From: Escherichia coli
GTDB taxonomy: Bacteria; Pseudomonadota; Gammaproteobacteria; Enterobacterales; Enterobacteriaceae
DNA: 64,000 nt
NCBI RefSeq assembly: GCF_044324785.1
Contig: NZ_CP172127.1
Reading direction: 5' to 3' (one strand)
Shown: positions 1 to 37,807 of the stretch, piece after piece
How positions within the stretch are numbered: position 1 is the first letter of the stretch
How the letters are laid out: the number at the start of each line of letters is the position of its first letter
Made by a program: the position numbers and the translations under genes
The notes under the pieces: model-generated
The model's input: the letters and a program-made list of their open reading frames with translations, nothing else
Told to the model about the DNA's origin: nothing
Database searches by the model: none

Positions 1-248
1 GCCAGATTTGCCACTTCCTCCAATGGGATATTATGGCTTTCAGCGAGCTTCTGATAACTCTCTTTCCGTGCCTGATTGATATTTGCTACCAGCTCTCGTG
101 TTTCTGGATCAGTGCTTATAGCCGCAAGGTAGCCATTATGCCTTTCACCTACCCGCCCCTGACTTCTGGCTTCATTCAGGGTTAATGCCATCGCACTACT
201 GCTCACCAGACCAATAATCCATACCGCTATGAGTAATGTTCTTTTCAT
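1..248 (-). CDS. ydbL: YdbL (DUF1318 periplasmic protein), N-terminal part only; the 3' end lies beyond the window start
   Basis: Minus-strand translation from the ATG at 248 gives MKRTLLIAVWIIGLVSSSAMALTLNEARSQGRVGE..., a signal peptide plus YdbL-like sequence. It lies directly downstream of ynbE/ydbH as in K-12. It is absent from the ORF track because it runs off the window. Confidence 0.8.
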   Translation of the reverse strand, partial: MKRTLLIAVWIIGLVSSSAMALTLNEARSQGRVGERHNGYLAAISTDPETRELVANINQARKESYQKLAESHNIPLEEVANL

Positions 249-255
249 CATTACC

Positions 256-441
256 TCAGAAAAGATCGCTACGAGTTTCAAGCAGCTCTTCGACATCTTT
301 GTCTGCCTTGATGATGATCTCATGCTCAATTTTAACGTTCATATTGATAGTGATCGGTTCCTTAGGTGCAGCGACTTCAATGCGAGGCGTACAGCCAACC
401 AGCATAAAAGATGACGTCAACGCAGCCAGTAAAATTTTCAT
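256..441 (-). CDS. ynbE: Small lipoprotein YnbE
   Basis: 61-aa ORF MKILLAALTSSFMLVGC... with a lipobox (LVGC). Its start overlaps the ydbH stop by 4 nt, consistent with a ydbH-ynbE-ydbL operon. Confidence 0.88.
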   Translation of the reverse strand: MKILLAALTSSFMLVGCTPRIEVAAPKEPITINMNVKIEHEIIIKADKDVEELLETRSDLF

Positions 442-3077
442 TGTTTTTCCTCACACTCTTTTCCTTGCGGACAGTCATTTCCCGGCAGACGCGCGTTCTG
501 CTCCAACCATGCCTGGAGATTATCGCCAAAGCGTAAACTGCGCCACAGCGTAAAAATATTCTCTTCATGATGGTAATTAAGGTTTACCGTACCGCTTTTA
601 CCATCAACGCGACTGGTGCCTGTAATGTTGGCCTGCATGGTTAATAAACCGAGATTATCTAAGTTAATTTTTGTCGATGAACGGCTAATTTCCATATAGC
701 GCAACCAGTTAATTGCTGAACCCGCGGTCATATTGTCTTTCACTACCGCATCTGCGGTGTCTTTATCCAGCCGCAAGGTCATTGGCCCGCTATTTGCCAG
801 CCAACCATCTTTCACTATCCATTTTTCGTTGTTTAGCCATAACGGCAATGCACCACTAAATGCCCCGGACATGGCGAATTGTTTCGGATTGACGGCGCTA
901 ACCAGTTCGCTGGATGAGAGATTATTCAGCCGCAACAGCGCCGGGTCATGTTGCGGCATACGTAATTGTTTCATCAGCACGTTACCGCCTAACACATCGA
1001 CGCTAACATCAGTCAACAGCAATGGTTCTTCTTCTGTCCACGGATAGCGCCCTTGCAAATCAGCCGTAATATTTTTCGCTGTCACCAGATTAATCACTTC
1101 GGCAATTCGCAACGTAACGGGGCCGCGAGTCCCCAGATGCCAGGCTCCATCGGCAAAACGGAAAGGCAGGACAAAATCGACACCGTTAACCTGATTATCT
1201 GGCATCCAGGCACTACCGCCTTTCAACACACCGTGCCCTCCCGCGCGGAATCCTTGTTCAGGCGCAGCAGAAAATGCGACCTGGGCATATAGTTCGCCAT
1301 CGCGTAAGTTCATCTTCCAGTCGGGTGGCACCAGCGGCTGGAATACGGTCAGTGATTGTTTAGGCCACCAGGCGTTACCGCGCAGACGAATACCGTCCCA
1401 GCGACCACTTACCCGAACCGGGCCAATCTCACCAGCATGTAAATCGCCTTTAAAAAGGAAATACGTCGGATCGCGTCCATCGACGCTAAATTTTAAGGTT
1501 GATGGCGGTAACACACTGCCGCCAGTGAACAGCGTTTGCCCGGCGTCCAGTGACAGCGCGCCGCTAAAGGAGGGATGCTGTGCGTCACGTACCCAGACGA
1601 CGGGCTTGTCGAGAATTAGTCGCGGCTTTTCTACCGTCATCGTACCGTATTGTAACTGGTCGAAACCGGTGGAGAGATCGGTCAGCGTAATCGTGCTGTC
1701 ATGCCACTCACCCTTTCCTGCGACGTCCCAGGTGGCATTCATCGGTGTAAAACTGCCTTTTCCCCAGTAGCGCCACTGCCAGCGGCCAGCGTCAGGGAGA
1801 AAATCATTCGCCAGTCCATCCATATGCAGCACGAAATCGCCCAGTTCATTTTCATGCGCCTGCAAAATGGCCTGCAAACGTCCGTCAACACCACGTTGGG
1901 TGACTTTTACACCCGCTAAAGGCCAGCGGATTTCATCGATGTCCAGCGAATCGATGACTCTTCCCTTCGAACGTAATAACGCGCCTGGCTCAAAGGCCAG
2001 CGTTGGGTCAGTCAGACTTCCGCTTAGCTGCGCAGGTAAGCGGGCATATAAAATGAGATCCGCCTGTTTCGCTTCACCGGTCAGCTGCAAAGGCAGCTGG
2101 CTGTTATCCATGCTTAATTTTCCAGGGCCAAAATTAAGCACCGCGTTGCCTTTACCCGCTTGCCCCTGGGTCAGCACACTAAGTCGTCCGCTGACCAGAG
2201 CGTTCTCGAGCCCTGCCTGCCAGTTGTCGACTTTGACACCCAGTCGGCCACTCAAAGGAAAACCTGCATACGGCCAACTCCAGCGACCATCGCTTACGGT
2301 CAATTGTTGACGAGTAATTTGCCACGGCAAATCGAGCAACGGATCGCCGTTATCCCGTGCCAGCACAATCAATTGCCCGCTATTTTCCTGCCAGTCCAGC
2401 TCTGCATCCACCAGTGACGGTTCCTGCGGCAAGTTAAACGTCGCAGTAGTATGCCCACTGACAGGAAGTCCATCCGGCACGAGCGGCATAGTAAATTCCC
2501 CCGCCAGTTTAACCGGCGGCTGATTTTCAAACGCGACGACATCCAGTTCGCTGACTGTAAGTTGTTGCCCTTTCAGCTGGCCTTGAAATTTAACTTTTTC
2601 GCCCTGATAACGCAGTTGCTGGATATCAGAGGTTAATGCGAGAGAGAGTTTTCCCTGCCATTCCTGCCAGGGAGAAAAAATCAGTTTATCGATATTGATC
2701 CAGGTGTTAGGCAGCATGGACTGCCACTGCGCGAGGGTTTTTGGAGCGGCTGGCGATTGCTCCGTCTGCGGCAATTTCGCCAGACAAGCAGAATCAAGTT
2801 CTACCGTGCCGACGTTCAATAACCAGCGGCTGGGATGTGAAAGGCTGGCGTTGGTGATATGCGCAAGCTGACAATCTCCCACCAGATAACGGAGATCGGG
2901 AATGATTAAACCTTTACGCGTAATGCGTGGGCTTTCATCTAATGCAATACGTGTCCCGAGCGGTAGCCAGATGCCCGCCAGCGTGGGAACCCACAAGCCG
3001 AGCGTCATCAGCAGCGTCAACGGCACAAGAATAATCAGTAATAACAGCGCGAGAACGGCTTTATATTTACCCAGCAT
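438..3077 (-). CDS. ydbH: AsmA-like/TamB-like envelope protein YdbH (proposed intermembrane lipid transport)
   Basis: 879-aa ORF with an N-terminal TM anchor (MLGKYKAVLALLLLIILVPLTLLMTL...). Length and sequence match my memory of K-12 YdbH. Confidence 0.95.
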   Translation of the reverse strand: MLGKYKAVLALLLLIILVPLTLLMTLGLWVPTLAGIWLPLGTRIALDESPRITRKGLIIPDLRYLVGDCQLAHITNASLSHPSRWLLNVGTVELDSACLAKLPQTEQSPAAPKTLAQWQSMLPNTWINIDKLIFSPWQEWQGKLSLALTSDIQQLRYQGEKVKFQGQLKGQQLTVSELDVVAFENQPPVKLAGEFTMPLVPDGLPVSGHTTATFNLPQEPSLVDAELDWQENSGQLIVLARDNGDPLLDLPWQITRQQLTVSDGRWSWPYAGFPLSGRLGVKVDNWQAGLENALVSGRLSVLTQGQAGKGNAVLNFGPGKLSMDNSQLPLQLTGEAKQADLILYARLPAQLSGSLTDPTLAFEPGALLRSKGRVIDSLDIDEIRWPLAGVKVTQRGVDGRLQAILQAHENELGDFVLHMDGLANDFLPDAGRWQWRYWGKGSFTPMNATWDVAGKGEWHDSTITLTDLSTGFDQLQYGTMTVEKPRLILDKPVVWVRDAQHPSFSGALSLDAGQTLFTGGSVLPPSTLKFSVDGRDPTYFLFKGDLHAGEIGPVRVSGRWDGIRLRGNAWWPKQSLTVFQPLVPPDWKMNLRDGELYAQVAFSAAPEQGFRAGGHGVLKGGSAWMPDNQVNGVDFVLPFRFADGAWHLGTRGPVTLRIAEVINLVTAKNITADLQGRYPWTEEEPLLLTDVSVDVLGGNVLMKQLRMPQHDPALLRLNNLSSSELVSAVNPKQFAMSGAFSGALPLWLNNEKWIVKDGWLANSGPMTLRLDKDTADAVVKDNMTAGSAINWLRYMEISRSSTKINLDNLGLLTMQANITGTSRVDGKSGTVNLNYHHEENIFTLWRSLRFGDNLQAWLEQNARLPGNDCPQGKECEEKQ

Positions 3078-3284
3078 GGGTAGTTAATATCCTGATTTAG
3101 CGAAAAATTAAGCATTCAATACGGGTATTGTGGCATGTTTAACCGTTCAGTTGAAGGTTGCGCCTACACTAAGCATAGTTGTTGATGAATTTTTCAATAT
3201 CGCCATGGCTTTCAATTATATTTGAAATTTTGTAAAATATTTTTAGTAGCTTAAATGTGATTCAACATCACTGGAGAAAGTCTT

Positions 3285-4274
3285 ATGAAACTCGCCGTTT
3301 ATAGCACAAAACAGTACGACAAGAAGTACCTGCAACAGGTGAACGAGTCCTTTGGCTTTGAGCTGGAATTTTTTGACTTTCTGCTGACGGAAAAAACCGC
3401 TAAAACGGCCAATGGCTGCGAAGCGGTATGTATTTTCGTAAACGATGACGGCAGCCGCCCGGTGCTGGAAGAGCTGAAAAAGCACGGCGTTAAATATATC
3501 GCCCTGCGCTGTGCCGGTTTCAATAACGTCGACCTTGACGCGGCAAAAGAACTGGGGCTGAAAGTAGTCCGTGTTCCAGCCTATGATCCAGAAGCCGTTG
3601 CTGAACACGCCATCGGTATGATGATGACGCTGAACCGCCGTATTCATCGCGCGTATCAGCGTACTCGTGACGCCAACTTCTCTCTGGAAGGTCTGACCGG
3701 CTTTACTATGTATGGCAAAACGGCAGGCGTTATCGGTACCGGTAAAATCGGTGTGGCGATGCTGCGCATTCTGAAAGGTTTTGGTATGCGTCTGCTGGCG
3801 TTCGATCCGTATCCAAGTGCGGCGGCACTGGAACTCGGTGTGGAGTATGTCGATCTGCCAACCCTGTTCTCTGAATCAGACGTTATCTCTCTGCACTGCC
3901 CGCTGACACCGGAAAACTACCATCTGTTGAACGAAGCCGCCTTTGATCAGATGAAAAATGGCGTGATGATCGTCAATACCAGTCGCGGTGCATTGATTGA
4001 TTCTCAGGCGGCAATTGAAGCGCTGAAAAATCAGAAAATTGGTTCGTTGGGTATGGACGTGTATGAGAACGAACGCGATCTGTTCTTTGAAGACAAATCC
4101 AACGACGTGATCCAGGATGACGTATTCCGTCGTCTGTCTGCCTGCCACAACGTGCTGTTTACCGGGCACCAGGCATTCCTGACAGCAGAAGCACTGACCA
4201 GTATTTCTCAGACTACGCTGCAAAACTTAAGCAATCTGGAAAAAGGCGAAACCAGCCCGAACGAACTGGTTTAA
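3285..4274 (+). CDS. ldhA: Fermentative D-lactate dehydrogenase
   Basis: 329-aa ORF MKLAVYSTKQYDKKYLQQVNESFGFELEFFDF... with the NAD-binding motif GVIGTGKIG. Recognised as LdhA. Confidence 0.97.
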   Translation: MKLAVYSTKQYDKKYLQQVNESFGFELEFFDFLLTEKTAKTANGCEAVCIFVNDDGSRPVLEELKKHGVKYIALRCAGFNNVDLDAAKELGLKVVRVPAYDPEAVAEHAIGMMMTLNRRIHRAYQRTRDANFSLEGLTGFTMYGKTAGVIGTGKIGVAMLRILKGFGMRLLAFDPYPSAAALELGVEYVDLPTLFSESDVISLHCPLTPENYHLLNEAAFDQMKNGVMIVNTSRGALIDSQAAIEALKNQKIGSLGMDVYENERDLFFEDKSNDVIQDDVFRRLSACHNVLFTGHQAFLTAEALTSISQTTLQNLSNLEKGETSPNELV

Positions 4275-30505: not shown

Positions 30506-30746
30506 TCCCATTACATCAATGCTTCACAATATACATAGTCCGACTGTACGCCACATCTTCAGGGTTATTAATGGGATAACCTTTCAGCCACGGCTTGATT
30601 AATCGTCCATTGGTATATTGATAAATTGGTGCAATCGGTGCTTGCTCCATGAGGATTTTTTCTGCCGCATTGTAATCGGCATTACGCGCTTGGTGATGCT
30701 GCCAACTTACTGATTTAGTGTATGATGGTGTTTTTGAGGTGCTCCA

Positions 30747-31022
30747 GTGGCTTCTGTTTCTATCAGCTGTCCCTCCTGTTCAGCTACTGACGGGGTGGTG
30801 CGTAACGGCAAAAGCACCGCCGGACATCAGCGCTATCTCTGCTCTCACTGCCGTAAAACATGGCAACTGCAGTTCACTTACACCGCTTCTCAACCCGGTA
30901 CGCACCAGAAAATCATTGATATGGCCATGAATGGCGTTGGATGCCGGGCAACTGCCCGCATTATGGGCGTTGGCCTCAACACGATTTTACGTCACTTAAA
31001 AAACTCAGGCCGCAGTCGGTAA
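30747..31022 (+). CDS. insA: IS1 InsA
   Basis: 91-aa ORF (GTG start) [43 protein letters not shown]..., recognised as InsA. Confidence 0.95.
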
Positions 31023-31444
31023 CCTCGCGCATACAGCCGGGCAGTGACGTCATCGTCTGCGCGGAAATGGACGAACAGTGGGGCTATGTCGGGGCTAAAT
31101 CGCGCCAGCGCTGGCTGTTTTACGCGTATGACAGTCTCCGGAAGACGGTTGTTGCGCACGTATTCGGTGAACGCACTATGGCGACGCTGGGGCGTCTTAT
31201 GAGCCTGCTGTCACCCTTTGACGTGGTGATATGGATGACGGATGGCTGGCCGCTGTATGAATCCCGCCTGAAGGGAAAGCTGCACGTAATCAGCAAGCGA
31301 TATACGCAGCGAATTGAGCGGCATAACCTGAATCTGAGGCAGCACCTGGCACGGCTGGGACGGAAGTCGCTGTCGTTTTCAAAATCGGTGGAGCTGCATG
31401 ACAAAGTCATCGGGCATTATCTGAACATAAAACACTATCAATAA
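30941..31444 (+). CDS. insB: IS1 InsB frame (expressed as the InsAB' transposase by -1 frameshift)
   Basis: 167-aa ORF recognised as InsB. The A6C slippery run (TTAAAAAAC, A-run at 30998-31003) lies in the insA/insB overlap. Confidence 0.93.
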
Positions 31445-32963
31445 GTTGGAGTCATTACCTACGCGCTTTAACGGTATTTTCCGTTGATGCCTGGGCCAGT
31501 ACTTTGTCGTATGCCGGATTGTTAAAGCGTGAAATATTCCCTGAATGCGTTGACGTTAACAACGTAAGGAAAGTGGAGGGTTCATTATAATCCCCTACCC
31601 ATGAGGCGCGGATAACATCAAAATTGCCGGTGTTACGGCTATCGATATAGGTTTTCCATTCCTGATTCTGCAATTTAACATCTACGCCAAGGTTCTTTTT
31701 CCACATCGATGCTACAGCAATCGCAATTTTTTGATGGTTTTCTGAAGTGTTATACAAAAGCGTCAGCTTCAGCGGTTTTTGCGGACCATAACCAGCTGCG
31801 CTCAACAAAGTTTTTGCCTGCGCATTCAGTTCTTCCTGACTCATTTGTTCAAACGGCGAAGGCTCCGGCGTAAAACCGGCAGTAACATCTGGTGTAAAAT
31901 GCCACGCTGGCTTTTCCCCCGTCCCCAACACTTTTTCGGTCATCAGGCGGCGATCTATCGTCATACTTAATGCCAGGCGAACACGCTGATCGGCCGTCGG
32001 CCCTTTTTGCGTGTTAAACGCATAATAATAGGTCCCGAGCTGCGGCGGCGTATAAACCTGCCCCGGAATATCCTTCAACAGCTTCTGATACATATTTTTC
32101 GGGAAGGATTCGGTGATATCAATATCCCCCGCGAGGTAACGCTTAGTGGCTGCGGATTCCTGATTAATTGGCAAGAAGGTCACTTTTTGCAGTACCGTTT
32201 TGGCGTTATCCCAATAATGGGTATTCGGTACCACGACCAGTTTTTCATTGACTACGCGCTCTTCAAGAACATAAGCGCCATTACCGATCAGTTTTCCGGG
32301 TTTCGTCCACTCTTTAATGCTTTCTACGTTGGCTTTTTGCACCGGGAAGAAGGCAAAGTTAGCGGTTAAATTCACAAACCACGGCAACGGTTTATCAAGC
32401 TGGATTTTCAAAGTATGGGCATCAACTGCGGTGACGCCAAGCTGGTCAGGCGTGGCTTTACCATCAATAATCGCCTGTGCGTTGTTGATTCCCGCCAGCG
32501 CGGCAAACCATGCAAATGGCGACAATGTTTTTGGGTCCACCAGACGTTGCCAGCTGTAGACAAAATCTTGCGCCGTTACCGGTGTGCCATCCGCCCATTT
32601 TGCGTTATCGCGCAAGGTAAATGTCCAGATACGGTTGTCATTACTTTTCCACTGAGTCGCAACGCCGGGGACAATCTCCCCTTTCTCGTTCTGATTCACC
32701 AGTCCTTCAAACAGATCGCGAATGACCTGAATCTCTGGCAGGCCCACGGCTTTAGCGGGATCCAGCGACGCAGGTTCATCTTTAATGTGGCGCACCAACT
32801 CCTGCTTCTCTGCCAGTACTGTGCCGCTCGGAACTTCTGCAGCATACGAAAGAGAAATGCTGCTGACCAACAGCGCACAACACGTGACTGAAACAGAGTG
32901 CTTCATAAGTTTCCCTCTAACCGACATTAAAATTGATGCGTAATTATTTGTTTCGCCTTAAAG

Positions 32964-33000
32964 AAATGCAAACAACTTCCATCAAAAAAGTGACAAAGGA
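32964..33000. promoter_or_regulatory. 37-bp conserved element, copy 1 (upstream of mppA)
   Basis: AAATGCAAACAACTTCcatCAAAAAAGTGAcAaAgGA. It matches 36954-36990 at 31 of 37 positions (exact 16-mer, 3 variable nt, exact 11-mer), in the same plus-strand orientation. It lies 58-94 nt upstream of the mppA ATG at 32906. Confidence 0.45.
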
Positions 33001-33242
33001 AGCATCAAATGTTTTAAGTATCAATATATCAAATCAGATTTAGCGTAAATAATAGTCTCCAAAATGCGGTAAAGCACATAGAACTCCGAACACTACGTTC
33101 GGGCTTCGCACGTTCAAACCCGTTTTCGGTATCATAATCAGCATCTGTCGCCATTGTGCGAAGAATAAAAAATGACCAAAACGTTGAAAGGAACTGAGAA
33201 TACGTTAAGAGAAGAATTAAATTAATGTATCAGCAAGTAGTG

Positions 33243-34142
33243 CTAAACAGCACCTTTATACTTCAGCCTATCTATAAATAATGAGAATGCCGAGCCAGCA
33301 TGTCGACGGTGTGGATAGTACAGGTGATAACCGGGTAAATCTGGTGTGAATTTATCCAAAACACGTATCAGTTTTTTTTCTTTAATAGCCCGCTCAACCT
33401 GATCATAAGGTAGATACGCCAACCCATGCCCATCAATTGCAGCATCAATGATCAGGTCTATCGTATTCAGTAAAAGCTGACCTTCCATGCGAACACGAAC
33501 TTCACGTCCACCGCGTATTAATCTCCAGCGATTTGCTGTACCCGATGTGGGAAGATACAAATTAATTGCCTGATGATCTATTAATTGTGACACTGACGTT
33601 GGAGCACTTCGACGAGAAAAATAATCCGGTGAGCCAACAATAGCCATTGGTATATCTGGCCCGATTCGAATGGCGATCATATCTTTATCCATCTCCCCAC
33701 CCAGACGGACGCCTGCATCAAAACGTTCAGAAACGACATCGGTCAAACCATAATCAATGGTAAGCTGGATATCAATTTCAGGATGCGATTTCAGGAATGT
33801 GCGCATAGCTGGTAACAATATCGTTTTTGCTGCATGTTCTACAGTAGTAATACGTATTGTCCCGGATGGGCGGTTCTGCAGATCGCTCAGGGATGTCAGG
33901 GCAGAATCTATGTCATGCAACATAGGGCCAAGAACAGACAAAAGATGCTCGCCCGCTTCAGTGGGTACAACGCTGCGCGTGGTTCGCGTCAGAAGCCGCA
34001 ATCCTAATCGTTCTTCTATACGGCGCACTATCTGGCTTAAAGCTGACTGCGCCATGCTCAGGCGGGCTGCTGCGCGAGTGAAGCTACGCTCCTCTGCAAC
34101 GACGACAAACGCCATCAGATCAGCGATTTCTTCACGCTTCAT
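33243..34142 (-). CDS. pgrR: LysR-family regulator PgrR (YcjZ), regulator of peptidoglycan-peptide recycling genes
   Basis: 299-aa ORF MKREEIADLMAFVVVAEERSFTRAAARLSMAQSALSQIVRRIEERLG..., divergent from ycjY. Length matches K-12 YcjZ. Confidence 0.9.
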   Translation of the reverse strand: MKREEIADLMAFVVVAEERSFTRAAARLSMAQSALSQIVRRIEERLGLRLLTRTTRSVVPTEAGEHLLSVLGPMLHDIDSALTSLSDLQNRPSGTIRITTVEHAAKTILLPAMRTFLKSHPEIDIQLTIDYGLTDVVSERFDAGVRLGGEMDKDMIAIRIGPDIPMAIVGSPDYFSRRSAPTSVSQLIDHQAINLYLPTSGTANRWRLIRGGREVRVRMEGQLLLNTIDLIIDAAIDGHGLAYLPYDQVERAIKEKKLIRVLDKFTPDLPGYHLYYPHRRHAGSAFSLFIDRLKYKGAV

Positions 34143-34166
34143 TCAGTATCTCCATACAATCTATTA

Positions 34167-34209
34167 ATCATTTAAATGATAGGTCTAATCATGATTTTGG
34201 GTCTAATCA
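34167..34209. promoter_or_regulatory. Candidate PgrR operator region in the pgrR/ycjY divergent promoter
   Basis: Perfect 14-bp palindrome ATCATTTAAATGAT (34167-34180), followed by two direct copies of GGTCTAATCA (34182-34191 and 34200-34209). Confidence 0.4.
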
Positions 34210-34279
34210 ACTTAATGATCAATATCTATAGTGATATCACCAACCGTCAAAACGAACCGACAACTCCATGAGGAACGGA

Positions 34280-35200
34280 ATGATGAATAATAAAGTCAGC
34301 TTCACTAACAGCAATAATCCAACCATCTCTTTGTCTGCAGTGATCTATTTCCCTCCAAAATTTGATGAAACCCGTCAGTATCCGGCAATTGTGGTATCTC
34401 ACCCAGGTGGGGGCGTTAAAGAGCAAACGGCCGGAACCTATGCCGAAAAACTGGCGGAAAAGGGATTTGTCACTATTGCTTATGACGCATCTTATCAAGG
34501 TGAAAGCGGCGGCGAGCCGCGTCAGTTAGAAAACCCATACATTCGTACTGAAGACGTCAGTGCCGTGATTGATTACCTGACAACGCTTTCTTATGTCGAC
34601 AATACCCGAATTGGTGCGATGGGAATTTGTGCCGGTGCAGGATATACAGCCAATGCTGCAATTCAGGATCGCCGCATCAAGGCCATCGGTACTGTTAGTG
34701 CGGTCAATATTGGTTCGATGTTCCGTAATGGTTGGGAAAACAATGTGAAATCTATTGATGCCCTACCATACGTTGACGCGGGTTCAAACGCCCGAACCAG
34801 CGATATTAGCAGCGGAGAATACGCCACTATGCCACTGGCACCAATGAAGGAGTCCGATGCGCCGAACGAAGAACTGCGTCAGGCCTGGGAGTATTACCAC
34901 ACCCCTCGCGCGCAGTATCCAACAGCACCGGGTTACGCTACTTTGCGCAGCCTTAACCAGATTATTACCTATGATGCTTACCATATGGCGGAAGTGTACC
35001 TGACTCAGCCGATACAGATTGTGGCGGGCAGCCAGGCAGGGAGCAAATGGATGAGTGACGACCTGTACGATCGAGCATCAAGCCAGGATAAACGCTATCA
35101 CATTGTTGAAGGCGCAAACCATATGGATCTTTATGACGGCAAAGCCTATGTGGCTGAAGCAATTTCAGTATTAGCTCCGTTCTTTGAGGAAACTCTGTAA
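34280..35200 (+). CDS. ycjY: Alpha/beta hydrolase YcjY (dienelactone-hydrolase-like, Cys nucleophile elbow)
   Basis: The ATG at 34280, preceded by GAGGA, gives MMNNKVSFTNSNNPTISLSAV... and 306 aa. The nucleophile elbow is GICAGAG (GxCxG rather than GxSxG). Confidence 0.88.
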   Translation: MMNNKVSFTNSNNPTISLSAVIYFPPKFDETRQYPAIVVSHPGGGVKEQTAGTYAEKLAEKGFVTIAYDASYQGESGGEPRQLENPYIRTEDVSAVIDYLTTLSYVDNTRIGAMGICAGAGYTANAAIQDRRIKAIGTVSAVNIGSMFRNGWENNVKSIDALPYVDAGSNARTSDISSGEYATMPLAPMKESDAPNEELRQAWEYYHTPRAQYPTAPGYATLRSLNQIITYDAYHMAEVYLTQPIQIVAGSQAGSKWMSDDLYDRASSQDKRYHIVEGANHMDLYDGKAYVAEAISVLAPFFEETL

Positions 35201-36132
35201 TGAAACATATTCAAATCCGCAATAGTGATATGGCCTGGCATATTGCTGCCAATATTCAGTTTCCACCAAATTTTGATGAGTCAAAACAGTATCCGGCGAT
35301 TATCAGCGTCCATCCTTTTGGCAGTTGTAAGGAGCAGACGTCTGGCAATATCTATGGCAAGGCATTGGCTGAAAAAGGCTATGTCGTTCTCGCTTATGAC
35401 GCCAGTTTCCAGGGAGAATCTGGTGGGGAGCCTCGTTGGATAGAAGATCCGACACAGCGCGTTGAGGATATTAGCCGTGTTATCGATTATGCAGTAACTC
35501 TGCCATATGTTGATGCTGAACGCATTGGCGTGCTGGGTGTGTGTGGGGGGGGTGGCTATGCCATTAATGCCGCGCTGACAGAAAAACGAATTAAAGCTGT
35601 AGTGAGTATTACGGGTGTTAATATCGGGCGTCTTTTTCGAGAAGGTTTCAGCAATTACGATCCGATTGGCGCATTGAATGCAATGGCGTCGCAACGAACC
35701 AAAGAGGCTCGTGGTGGAGAATTACAGATCAACGAATTACTTCCCGCCAGCCTGGATGCAGCAAAAGCCCATGGACTGACCGAACGCGATGTTTATGAAG
35801 CAACTGACTACTATAAAACACCACGCGGGCAACAACCGGGAGGTGCGACAAAAATGTTGTTCTCACATGCACAGAAAACGCTGGCCTGGGATGCCTTCGC
35901 ATTTACTGAAGTGTTACTGACTCAGCCGGTGATGGTAGTAGTTGGTGAAAAAGTCGGTGCCTTCGGTGCTTATCGTGATGGACTGGAAGTCTATGGCCGG
36001 GCGATGGTTTCGCAGGATCGTCAGTTAGTTTCGTTACCCGATTTCTCACATTATGAACTGTATGACAAACCGGAAGCAGTTCAGGAGGCGCTGGAAAAAG
36101 TTATTCCTTTTTTCAACACCCATCTGGGATAA
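35200..36132 (+). CDS. Second alpha/beta hydrolase, paralog of YcjY (GxCxG elbow)
   Basis: 310-aa ORF, alignable with YcjY along its length (e.g. QYPAIISVHPFGSCKEQTSG.../YDASFQGESGGEPR/RIGVLGVCGGGGYAINAA). Its start overlaps the ycjY stop (TAATG) and is preceded by GAGGA. Confidence 0.85.
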   Translation: MKHIQIRNSDMAWHIAANIQFPPNFDESKQYPAIISVHPFGSCKEQTSGNIYGKALAEKGYVVLAYDASFQGESGGEPRWIEDPTQRVEDISRVIDYAVTLPYVDAERIGVLGVCGGGGYAINAALTEKRIKAVVSITGVNIGRLFREGFSNYDPIGALNAMASQRTKEARGGELQINELLPASLDAAKAHGLTERDVYEATDYYKTPRGQQPGGATKMLFSHAQKTLAWDAFAFTEVLLTQPVMVVVGEKVGAFGAYRDGLEVYGRAMVSQDRQLVSLPDFSHYELYDKPEAVQEALEKVIPFFNTHLG

Positions 36133-36149
36133 GTTTCATGAGAAATATT

Positions 36150-36788
36150 ATGAAAAAAGTACTCATTCTTGGTGCTGGCGGTCAGATAGCCCGCCATGTG
36201 ATTAATCAACTGGCAGATAAACAAACCATTAAACAAACTTTATTTGCTCGTCAGCCAGCAAAAATACACAAACCCTATCCAACTAATAGCCAGATTATTA
36301 TGGGGGATGTACTGAATCATGCAGCACTGAAGCAGGCCATGCAGGGACAGGATGTTGTGTATGCCAACCTTACGGGGGAAGATTTAGATATTCAGGCAAA
36401 TTCAGTGATCGCTGCGATGAAAGCCTGTGATGTTAAACGTCTGATCTTTGTTCTTTCCCTCGGTATTTATGATGAAGTTCCAGGAAAATTTGGCGAATGG
36501 AATAATGCAGTTATTGGTGAACCCCTAAAACCATTCCGCAGGGCTGCGGATGCAATTGAGGCTTCTGGACTGGAATATACAATTCTTCGCCCTGCCTGGC
36601 TGACTGATGAAGATATTATTGATTATGAGCTTACCTCACGCAATGAACCATTCAAAGGTACGATCGTATCACGTAAGAGTGTCGCCGCATTAATTACAGA
36701 TATCATCGATAAACCTGAGAAACACATTGGTGAGAATATAGGCATCAATCAACCCGGGACTGATGGCGATAAACCCTTCTTCATGTAA
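36150..36788 (+). CDS. NAD(P)-binding Rossmann protein (NmrA/atypical-SDR-like); probably the full-length form of the K-12 ymjC remnant
   Basis: MKKVLILGAGGQIARHVINQL... (GxxGxxG-type dinucleotide fold). The ORF track starts at 36138, and the ATG at 36150 puts the Rossmann motif at the N-terminus. The link to ymjC is from memory of the K-12 annotation. Confidence 0.75.
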   Translation: MKKVLILGAGGQIARHVINQLADKQTIKQTLFARQPAKIHKPYPTNSQIIMGDVLNHAALKQAMQGQDVVYANLTGEDLDIQANSVIAAMKACDVKRLIFVLSLGIYDEVPGKFGEWNNAVIGEPLKPFRRAADAIEASGLEYTILRPAWLTDEDIIDYELTSRNEPFKGTIVSRKSVAALITDIIDKPEKHIGENIGINQPGTDGDKPFFM

Positions 36789-36806
36789 ATCAATTATATA
36801 GCTACC

Positions 36807-36838
36807 ATCGTACTGTACTATGTGCAGTACGATTTATT
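36807..36838 (+). terminator. Stem-loop after the NAD(P)-binding gene (putative terminator/attenuator before mpaA)
   Basis: ATCGTACTG-tactatgtg-CAGTACGAT followed by TTATT. Confidence 0.55.
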
Positions 36839-36953
36839 AAACTTATTAAGGTGAACTGATCAATCAGATGCGATTAACATGTGTAGAACCAGTAAGAATA
36901 AAATACGCCATGTATATAACATTACGACAATTCTAATATCTGCACATCAATGA

Positions 36954-36990
36954 AAATGCAAACAACTTCTGGCAAAAAAGTGATACAAGA
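36954..36990. promoter_or_regulatory. 37-bp conserved element, copy 2 (upstream of mpaA)
   Basis: AAATGCAAACAACTTCtggCAAAAAAGTGAtAcAaGA. See copy 1 at 32964-33000. It lies 89-125 nt upstream of the mpaA ATG at 37079. Confidence 0.45.
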
Positions 36991-37078
36991 TCGATGACAT
37001 AGCGTTGAAGAAAAGGATTTGATAATCCGCAAAATTTGCACAACACTGCCTGTAATACTTCCTGAACCAGAGACGATC

Positions 37079-37807
37079 ATGACCGTAACCCGCCCACGCG
37101 CCGAACGCGGCGCATTTCCGCCCGGAACAGAACATTACGGACGTTCATTATTGGGCGCGCCGTTAATCTGGTTTCCTGCCCCTGCAGCCAGCCGCGAAAG
37201 TGGTTTGATTCTGGCTGGCACTCACGGTGATGAAAACTCTTCGGTCGTCACGCTCTCCTGTGCTCTGCGGACGTTGACACCTTCTTTGCGCCGTCATCAT
37301 GTGGTGCTGTGTGTAAATCCTGACGGCTGCCAGTTGGGGTTACGGGCCAATGCTAATGGTGTGGATTTAAACAGAAACTTTCCGGCGGCGAACTGGAAGG
37401 AAGGTGAAACCGTTTATCGCTGGAACAGCGCCGCTGAAGAACGTGATGTCGTTTTACTGACAGGTGACAAACCTGGCTCCGAACCTGAAACCCAGGCGCT
37501 GTGCCAGCTTATACACCGCATTCAACCTGCCTGGGTGGTCTCATTCCACGATCCACTGGCCTGTATTGAAGATCCCAGACACAGCGAATTAGGCGAATGG
37601 CTAGCCCAGGCGTTTGAATTGCCTCTGGTAACCAGCGTCGGTTATGAAACACCTGGCTCTTTCGGTAGTTGGTGTGCGGATCTCAACCTGCATTGCATAA
37701 CCGCAGAGTTTCCGCCCATCTCCTCCGACGAAGCCAGCGAAAAATATCTCTTTGCGATGGCAAACTTGCTGCGCTGGCATCCTAAAGATGCAATTCGCCC
37801 GTTGTGA
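37079..37807 (+). CDS. mpaA: Murein tripeptide amidase MpaA (M14 gamma-D-Glu-Dap carboxypeptidase)
   Basis: The ATG at 37079 gives MTVTRPRAERGAFPPGTEHYGRSLLGAPLIWFP... and 242 aa. The HGDE zinc motif is present. Confidence 0.92.
   Translation: MTVTRPRAERGAFPPGTEHYGRSLLGAPLIWFPAPAASRESGLILAGTHGDENSSVVTLSCALRTLTPSLRRHHVVLCVNPDGCQLGLRANANGVDLNRNFPAANWKEGETVYRWNSAAEERDVVLLTGDKPGSEPETQALCQLIHRIQPAWVVSFHDPLACIEDPRHSELGEWLAQAFELPLVTSVGYETPGSFGSWCADLNLHCITAEFPPISSDEASEKYLFAMANLLRWHPKDAIRPL

Follow-up and report, generated by a model that had tools for sequence, protein, structure and literature searches.

A 37-bp direct repeat between mppA and mpaA of Escherichia coli as the probable footprint of a horizontally acquired four-gene cassette

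A 37-bp sequence occurs twice, in direct orientation, in the 64-kb stretch of E. coli DNA analyzed in this study (referred to below as the window), once upstream of mppA and once upstream of mpaA. We consider it highly probable that the two copies are a target duplication, which flanks a horizontally acquired 4-kb cassette inserted between these two genes. This part of the window contains, from left to right, mppA (minus strand), copy 1 of the repeat, pgrR (minus strand), ycjY, a second hydrolase gene and ymjC (all on the plus strand), copy 2 of the repeat, and mpaA (plus strand). Their positions are as follows:

30692-31460, IS1 (insA/insB), bordered by 9-bp target duplications (TACGCGCTT) at 30683-30691 and 31461-31469
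31455-32906, minus strand, 5′ part of mppA, a gene broken by IS1 in this strain
32943-32971, minus strand, predicted sigma-70 promoter of mppA (consensus scan; −35 TTGCAT at 32971-32966, −10 AATAAT at 32948-32943)
32964-33000, plus strand, copy 1 of the 37-bp direct repeat (AAATGCAAACAACTTCCATCAAAAAAGTGACAAAGGA), the left junction of the insert as placed by alignment with empty sites
33001-36953, inserted segment of 3,953 bp, missing in 73 species and 174 E. coli genomes
33243-34142, minus strand, pgrR (ycjZ), LysR-family regulator of the cassette
34268-35200, plus strand, ycjY, first alpha/beta hydrolase of the cassette
35200-36132, plus strand, second alpha/beta hydrolase, intact here and missing from the K-12 locus
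36138-36788, plus strand, ymjC, NmrA-like SDR oxidoreductase, intact here and truncated in K-12
36807-36833, plus strand, terminator-like 12-bp hairpin followed by a U-rich run, just 3′ of ymjC
36954-36990, plus strand, copy 2 of the 37-bp direct repeat (AAATGCAAACAACTTCTGGCAAAAAAGTGATACAAGA), the right junction of the insert as placed by alignment with empty sites
37019-37047, plus strand, predicted core promoter of mpaA (TTGATA-17-AACACT), 29 nt to the right of copy 2
37079-37807, plus strand, mpaA, murein tripeptide amidase

The identities of mppA, mpaA and the cassette genes agree with the RefSeq annotation of near-identical E. coli loci. Since IS1 interrupts the 3′ part of mppA, this gene is probably a pseudogene in the strain analyzed. 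The non-coding DNA of the insert consists of a left arm of 242 nt and a right arm of 165 nt.

The description of the repeat given in the initial annotation proved exact on re-examination. The two copies are identical at 31 of 37 positions, share an exact 16-mer and an exact 11-mer with equal spacing, and are both read on the plus strand. Copy 1 is located 58-94 nt upstream of the start codon of mppA (ATG at 32906, minus strand) and copy 2 is located 89-125 nt upstream of that of mpaA (ATG at 37079, plus strand); these distances had also been given correctly. The presence of the copies on the same strand, beside genes facing in opposite directions, is explained by the fact that direct repeats bracket a four-gene block placed between divergent genes. 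The edges of the repeat are sharp: in ungapped comparisons the adjoining 30 nt match at 7/30 and 9/30 positions, the background for these A+T-rich spacers being 8.4 ± 2.5. A longer, decayed duplication extending past the 37 nt was rejected, the identity of the flanks being that of the background.

Evidence for an insertion comes from loci in which it is missing. We compared 80 loci around mpaA homologues, taking one genome per species (a set without E. albertii and E. fergusonii) and mapping the genes by tblastn. In 73 species of Enterobacteriaceae, mppA (minus strand) and mpaA (plus strand) are immediate divergent neighbours, with the element present once in each spacer, at the orthologous position. 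These spacers are mostly 177-203 bp long (138 bp in one species and 233 bp in another), and the genera represented include Citrobacter, Enterobacter, Leclercia, Lelliottia, Kluyvera, Trabulsiella, Yokenella and Pluralibacter. Four Escherichia lineages are also among the 73, namely E. ruysiae, E. whittamii, Escherichia sp. MOD1-EC7003 and that of “E. coli” SCPM-O-B-8794, and each has a spacer of exactly 182 bp with one copy of the element. The single copy of MOD1-EC7003 (AAATGCAAACAACTTCCGGCAAAAAAGTGATACAAGA) is identical to copy 2 of K-12. Within the 80-locus set, two copies were found only in loci carrying the pgrR cassette.

Empty sites also occur within E. coli, in 174 of 5,418 complete genomes (approx. 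3%), for example those of IAI39, CE10, AF57 and FDAARGOS_497. Alignment revealed that the spacer of FDAARGOS_497 corresponds to the left arm of the window, one copy of the repeat and the right arm, with one substitution in each arm. The lengths agree exactly: the 94 nt from the mppA ATG to the end of copy 1, plus the 125 nt from the start of copy 2 to the mpaA ATG, minus the 37 nt of one copy, give 182 nt, which is the length of the empty-site spacer in Escherichia. The features expected of direct repeats flanking an insertion were thus all observed, namely a single copy at the empty site, directly oriented copies abutting the insert, exact lengths and a foreign insert. The empty sites of E. 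coli could be ancestral, or they could have arisen by precise excision through the repeats.

We propose that the cassette entered the ancestral 182-bp region, in which the promoters of the divergent mppA and mpaA genes would have been arranged back to back, and that it was inserted between their two −35 hexamers. The duplicated stretch would comprise the −35 hexamer of mppA together with approx. 30 nt upstream of it, so that neither gene would have lost any of its own upstream DNA through the insertion. Copy 1 would still provide the −35 hexamer and the upstream part of the mppA promoter. Copy 2 would have been stranded approx. 65-100 nt upstream of the predicted start of mpaA transcription, a position in which it probably has no function, or at most acts as a residual upstream element or a weak orphan −35. 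The copies would since have diverged at 5-6 positions. Two routes may be put forward as the leading candidates: (i) a staggered break that was filled in, or (ii) a Campbell-type single crossover with circular DNA bearing a similar 37-bp stretch.

The insert itself (33001-36953) contains no transposase, integrase or recombinase ORF, its only genes being pgrR, those of the two hydrolases and that of the SDR. A sensitive blastn comparison of its ends with each other revealed no inverted or direct repeats besides the 37-mer. The target duplications made by classical transposons measure about 2-14 bp, a length which 37 bp far exceeds. We therefore rejected target-site duplication by a transposon or IS, given the lack of a transposase and of terminal inverted repeats and the excessive length of the duplication. 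With no integrase in the insert either, the event fits no named mechanism of insertion.

Two kinds of element offer partial parallels. IS1, present in the same window, is likewise bordered on both sides by a direct duplication of its target, but this is a duplication of 9 bp (TACGCGCTT), and IS1 carries terminal inverted repeats and the insA/insB transposase genes, none of which is found in the cassette. The feature also resembles horizontally acquired islets with flanking direct repeats, which show one copy at the empty site, two abutting copies at the occupied site, exact lengths, and foreign cargo that is found elsewhere. The insert described here differs from such islets in having neither a mobility gene nor terminal inverted repeats; moreover, at 37 bp its duplication is far longer than the target duplications of transposons, and no tRNA gene or integrase is involved. 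A flanking duplication is an ordinary phenomenon, and we regard the finding as being of low to moderate interest; no paper describing this repeat pair was found in the literature searched.

It is unlikely, in our estimate, that the 37-mer is instead the core of an att site. According to this explanation, the two copies would be the attL and attR sites of a larger integrative element, which entered by site-specific or Campbell-type recombination and later lost its mobility genes. The direct repeats flanking the insert and the existence of perfect empty sites are in keeping with such an origin, and the attL and attR sites of genomic islands and prophages are similar in being direct repeats of tens of bp, with precise empty sites and with mismatches confined to the inner side of one repeat. 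However, the insert lacks genes for an integrase, an excisionase or another recombination-directionality factor, and its target is a promoter spacer, not a tRNA or tmRNA gene or a gene end. No attP counterpart was found: no attP-like sequence adjoins the cassette in either of the Klebsiella plasmid loci compared (L083 and L084).

The distribution of the differences between the copies bears on the same question. Relative to the empty-site allele, copy 2 of K-12 carries no change and that of the window a single one (CTGG for CCGG), whereas copy 1 has 4-5 changes, all of which lie within the 20 nt on the insert side (distal to the promoter). The outer half of copy 1 and copy 2 of K-12 therefore both match the ancestral allele. 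Differences restricted to the inner half are expected for an att site if the crossover took place within the exact 16-17-mer. On the other hand, copy 1 of Escherichia sp. E1V33 has retained the ancestral CGG, which indicates that part of the asymmetry arose after the insertion. Copy 1 is also variable among E. coli strains, the variants being GTGACAAAGGA, GTGACACAGGA and a 1-nt deletion in O157.

Overall, the two copies differ at 14-16% of positions, compared with 8% between the single copies of E. coli and E. ruysiae. This high divergence is explained either by an old event, by fast evolution of copy 1, or by copies that were never identical. Likewise, the asymmetry of copy 1 may reflect relaxed constraint on its promoter-distal part, or else copies that differed from the outset; the latter would be expected of a single crossover with a circle bearing a similar but non-identical stretch.

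An att site would also be in line with the location of homologues of the cassette in ICE- or prophage-like islands, one of them beside an integrase fragment, and with the uptake of other DNA by the same spacer in Salmonella arizonae/diarizonae and Scandinavium. The mppA/mpaA spacer is indeed a recurrent insertion point, having taken up DNA at least twice more. However, these other insertions used different junctions and produced no duplication, which argues against a specific att site.

In Salmonella enterica subsp. arizonae and diarizonae (L025, 7449-9677, and L026) the spacer contains three genes, one of them with an Exo_endo_phos (DNase-I-like) domain, and the promoter blocks on the mppA side have been replaced. 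The three genes resemble cytolethal distending toxin genes. In Scandinavium manionii and Citrobacter sp. OP27 (L077 and L078, 1282-9882) an ORF of 2,866 aa, possibly encoding a cyclic beta-1,2-glucan synthase, is inserted approx. 25 nt to the right of the element, again with no duplication. A further locus (L076), labelled as Chryseobacterium sp. 18061, encodes MppA, MpaA and YcjG proteins 77-85% identical to those of E. coli and has an internal duplication of about 33 nt in its spacer. This locus is clearly enterobacterial, and the label therefore probably reflects contamination or mislabelling.

We also give a small probability to a reversible form of integration that needs no integrase. Here, a circular form of the cassette would move in and out by single crossovers through approx. 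17-37 bp of homology, the empty-site E. coli genomes would be precise excisions, and a single conserved factor, acting at both copies as live sites, would couple mppA, mpaA and the cassette. Both copies could stay live as binding sites because the duplicated stretch is promoter DNA.

What the duplicated stretch may do is best considered in relation to the predicted promoters. On the minus strand, the candidate mppA promoter reads TTGCAT-17-AATAAT (TTTGCA-18-AATAAT in the output of the consensus scan), and its −10 hexamer is located 37 nt upstream of the mppA ATG. The arrangement TTGCAT/TTGCAA-17-AATAAT is present in 69 of the 73 species. Copy 1 spans about −64 to −28 of this predicted promoter and holds its −35 hexamer as well as a T6 tract at approx. 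−53 to −48, which is about where UP-like elements are found. On the mpaA side, TTGATn-17-AACACT, with its end 32 nt upstream of the mpaA ATG, occurs in 71 of the 73 species. A strict consensus scan did not report this candidate, which is weak by consensus. Relative to the predicted mpaA start, copy 2 extends from about −101 to −65. It contains an orphan −35, accompanied 17 nt downstream on the minus strand by no more than a poor −10-like hexamer (TATTAG), and no promoter was detected at copy 2 by the consensus scan. The literature searched contained nothing usable on promoters or transcription start sites of mppA or mpaA, and both promoter assignments are predictions made from the sequence.

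Since two outward-facing −35/−10 pairs are conserved, the ancestral spacer is best read as a pair of back-to-back promoters. In this respect the 182-bp spacer resembles compact divergent sigma-70 regions with an UP-like A/T tract. The 37-mer covers one predicted −35 hexamer and the T6 tract, yet it is the insertion junctions, rather than the architecture of the promoter, that define its limits. Conservation supports this distinction. Among the 73 undivided spacers, mean column conservation is 0.77 within the 37 nt, 0.76 to their left and 0.70 to their right, and the conserved blocks (TAATTATTTGTTTC, GAAATGCAAA, TTGAT, GAAAc-ATTTGAT and TTTGCACAACACTGCC) extend across the 37-nt limits. As conservation is no higher inside than in the flanks, these limits mark the junctions of the insertion and not a unit of function.

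These results make it very unlikely that the 37-mer is a shared operator, as the initial annotation had proposed, bound by some regulator (or by PgrR) and kept before mppA and mpaA to co-regulate the uptake and cleavage of murein tripeptide. The proposal has its merits: mppA and mpaA act in one pathway, the ancestral stretch includes blocks common to different genera (GAAATGCAAA at 90-100%, and (A/G)TTGAT), copy 2 of K-12 still has the ancestral sequence, and a factor recognizing the ancestral site could bind both copies, as they come from one control region. However, the repeat begins and ends precisely at the insertion junctions, and its copies are paralogues that arose in a single duplication event, both being derived from one stretch of the 182-bp spacer. 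Related sequence is indeed conserved upstream of mppA and mpaA orthologues across the Enterobacteriaceae, but the 37 nt do not stand out from their flanks, and the best conserved block is explained as a −35 hexamer at a fixed distance of 17 nt from a conserved −10 hexamer. Inspection by eye revealed no dyad or direct-repeat symmetry in the 37-mer such as is typical of operators, and the half of copy 1 that differs is polymorphic within E. coli. The published list of PgrR targets obtained by SELEX names the ycjY/ycjZ intergenic region, but includes neither mppA nor mpaA (PMC5934670).

In a separate comparison, made by eye against consensus sequences, none of the sites for CRP, FNR, IHF, PurR/CytR, OmpR, PhoP or CpxR fitted both copies. 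The related suggestion of an UP-type element came close in the case of copy 1, with its predicted −35 hexamer and T-tract upstream of the mppA promoter, but not as a site shared by the two genes. A plus-strand transcript starting from copy 1, antisense to the 3′ end of pgrR, had been considered as well; the consensus scan detected no plus-strand promoter-like site there.

The initial annotation had judged a chance match very unlikely, and this was borne out by direct searches. With up to 3 mismatches allowed, a 30-nt pattern matched the window at exactly two places, whereas 100 dinucleotide-preserving shuffles yielded no match. When the 37-mer was used in a blastn search of 5,418 E. coli genomes at E ≤ 10, a threshold permissive enough to recover the second copy, the median was two places per genome (maximum of four), and the 37-mer is therefore not a dispersed repeat. 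In an Rfam scan of positions 32700-37300 the only match was a sub-threshold one to RAGATH-10, located inside pgrR, and a reading of the repeat as an RNA family was rejected. Although the region is A+T-rich and contains many matching pairs of 14-20 nt, the probability that the two copies are similar by chance or belong to a dispersed repeat (REP/BIME, ERIC or MITE) is negligible, given the shuffling result, the lack of a third copy in the window, the number of places per genome, the orthologous single copy in other species and the lack of an Rfam match.

Under the preferred explanation, that of a target duplication around an inserted cassette, the cargo should be foreign to the locus, and its composition and relatives point in this direction. 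The G+C content of the insert is 45%, compared with 54% for mpaA and ycjG. At the DNA level the insert is approx. 79% identical to segments of conjugative plasmids of K. aerogenes, K. variicola and K. pneumoniae. The match spans essentially the four genes (query positions 244-3797, and up to 3859 in one plasmid), including the first approx. 71 nt of the right arm, and the neighbours of the cassette differ in each of these plasmids. No match to the left arm (33001-33242) or to the last approx. 94 nt of the insert (36860-36953) was found in the Klebsiella plasmid contexts. The left arm contains an internal fragment of queH (epoxyqueuosine reductase QueH), annotated by PGAP at approx. 33053-33145 (L093, 4590-4682), which we read as a remnant of the earlier genomic context of the cassette; it is the single hint of where these unmatched arms came from.

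More distant versions of the cassette are carried by plasmids of Rhizobium and Agrobacterium. Homologues of PgrR with 88-89% identity are encoded in Salmonella, C. koseri and Kluyvera, each accompanied by hydrolase-hydrolase-SDR genes, and none of these is located between mppA and mpaA. The Salmonella and C. koseri homologues reside in ICE- or prophage-like islands with genes for ParE, AcaB, topoisomerase, antirestriction proteins, RadC or CbtA/CbeA. In Kluyvera, one copy of the cassette adjoins a phage-integrase fragment and another is situated among sugar-utilization genes. As judged from these sequence relationships, pgrR, the two hydrolase genes and ymjC are horizontally acquired mobile cargo.

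The Klebsiella plasmid cassettes likewise have two hydrolase genes, and with its second hydrolase gene and intact ymjC the window contains the full cassette as it occurs on those plasmids. In K-12 the second hydrolase gene is missing and ymjC is not intact, and in O157:H7 strain WS4202 the second hydrolase gene is frameshifted. In Escherichia sp. E1V33 (L007), mppA, pgrR and ycjY are 98-99% identical to those of E. coli, mpaA is 97% and ycjG 94% identical, and the left flank of copy 1 resembles that of E. ruysiae. This pattern of identities suggests that the cassette of E1V33 was imported from E. coli by homologous recombination.

PgrR is named as a regulator of peptidoglycan recycling, and for K-12 a ycjY-ymjDC-mpaA operon and the control of mpaA by PgrR have reportedly been published. 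The structure of the cassette 3′ end is relevant to both. The hairpin and U-run at 36807-36833 look like an intrinsic terminator at the 3′ end of the cassette: an 86-nt stretch containing the hairpin has a predicted folding energy of −19.4 kcal/mol (z = −2.6), and the hairpin region is common to the Klebsiella cassette. In K-12-type genomes a 665-bp deletion in ymjC (L001, 8540-8580, compared with L002, 8540-9235; approx. 36290-36953 in the window) removes this hairpin. The deletion has its endpoint within 1-2 nt of the left edge of copy 2 and involves 1 nt of microhomology; the position of its endpoint at the junction of inserted and native DNA is due either to chance or to selection. In approximately 2,300 of 5,414 E. 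coli genomes the match starts only at the deletion endpoint, and 2,479 of the 5,414 lack the full ymjC-mpaA spacer, about 174 of these being the empty-site genomes.

Because the deletion removes the hairpin, read-through into mpaA may be specific to K-12-type strains, and both the ycjY-ymjDC-mpaA operon and the control of mpaA by PgrR may depend on this deletion. As the cassette landed directly upstream of mpaA, such control looks like a case of regulatory capture by insertion. Since PgrR travels with a hydrolase/SDR cassette that is unrelated to murein recycling, its control of mpaA would most simply reflect the site of landing.

The explanation of the repeat as the outcome of an insertion replaces that of a new operator, and would spare the hunt for a probably non-existent regulator. 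Strains of E. coli with occupied and with empty sites form a natural pair for studying the consequences of splitting a compact divergent promoter region. The PgrR cassette also occurs on plasmids and islands, where it has no link to mpaA, and the possible dependence of PgrR control on the K-12-type deletion matters for any generalization of the result obtained with K-12.
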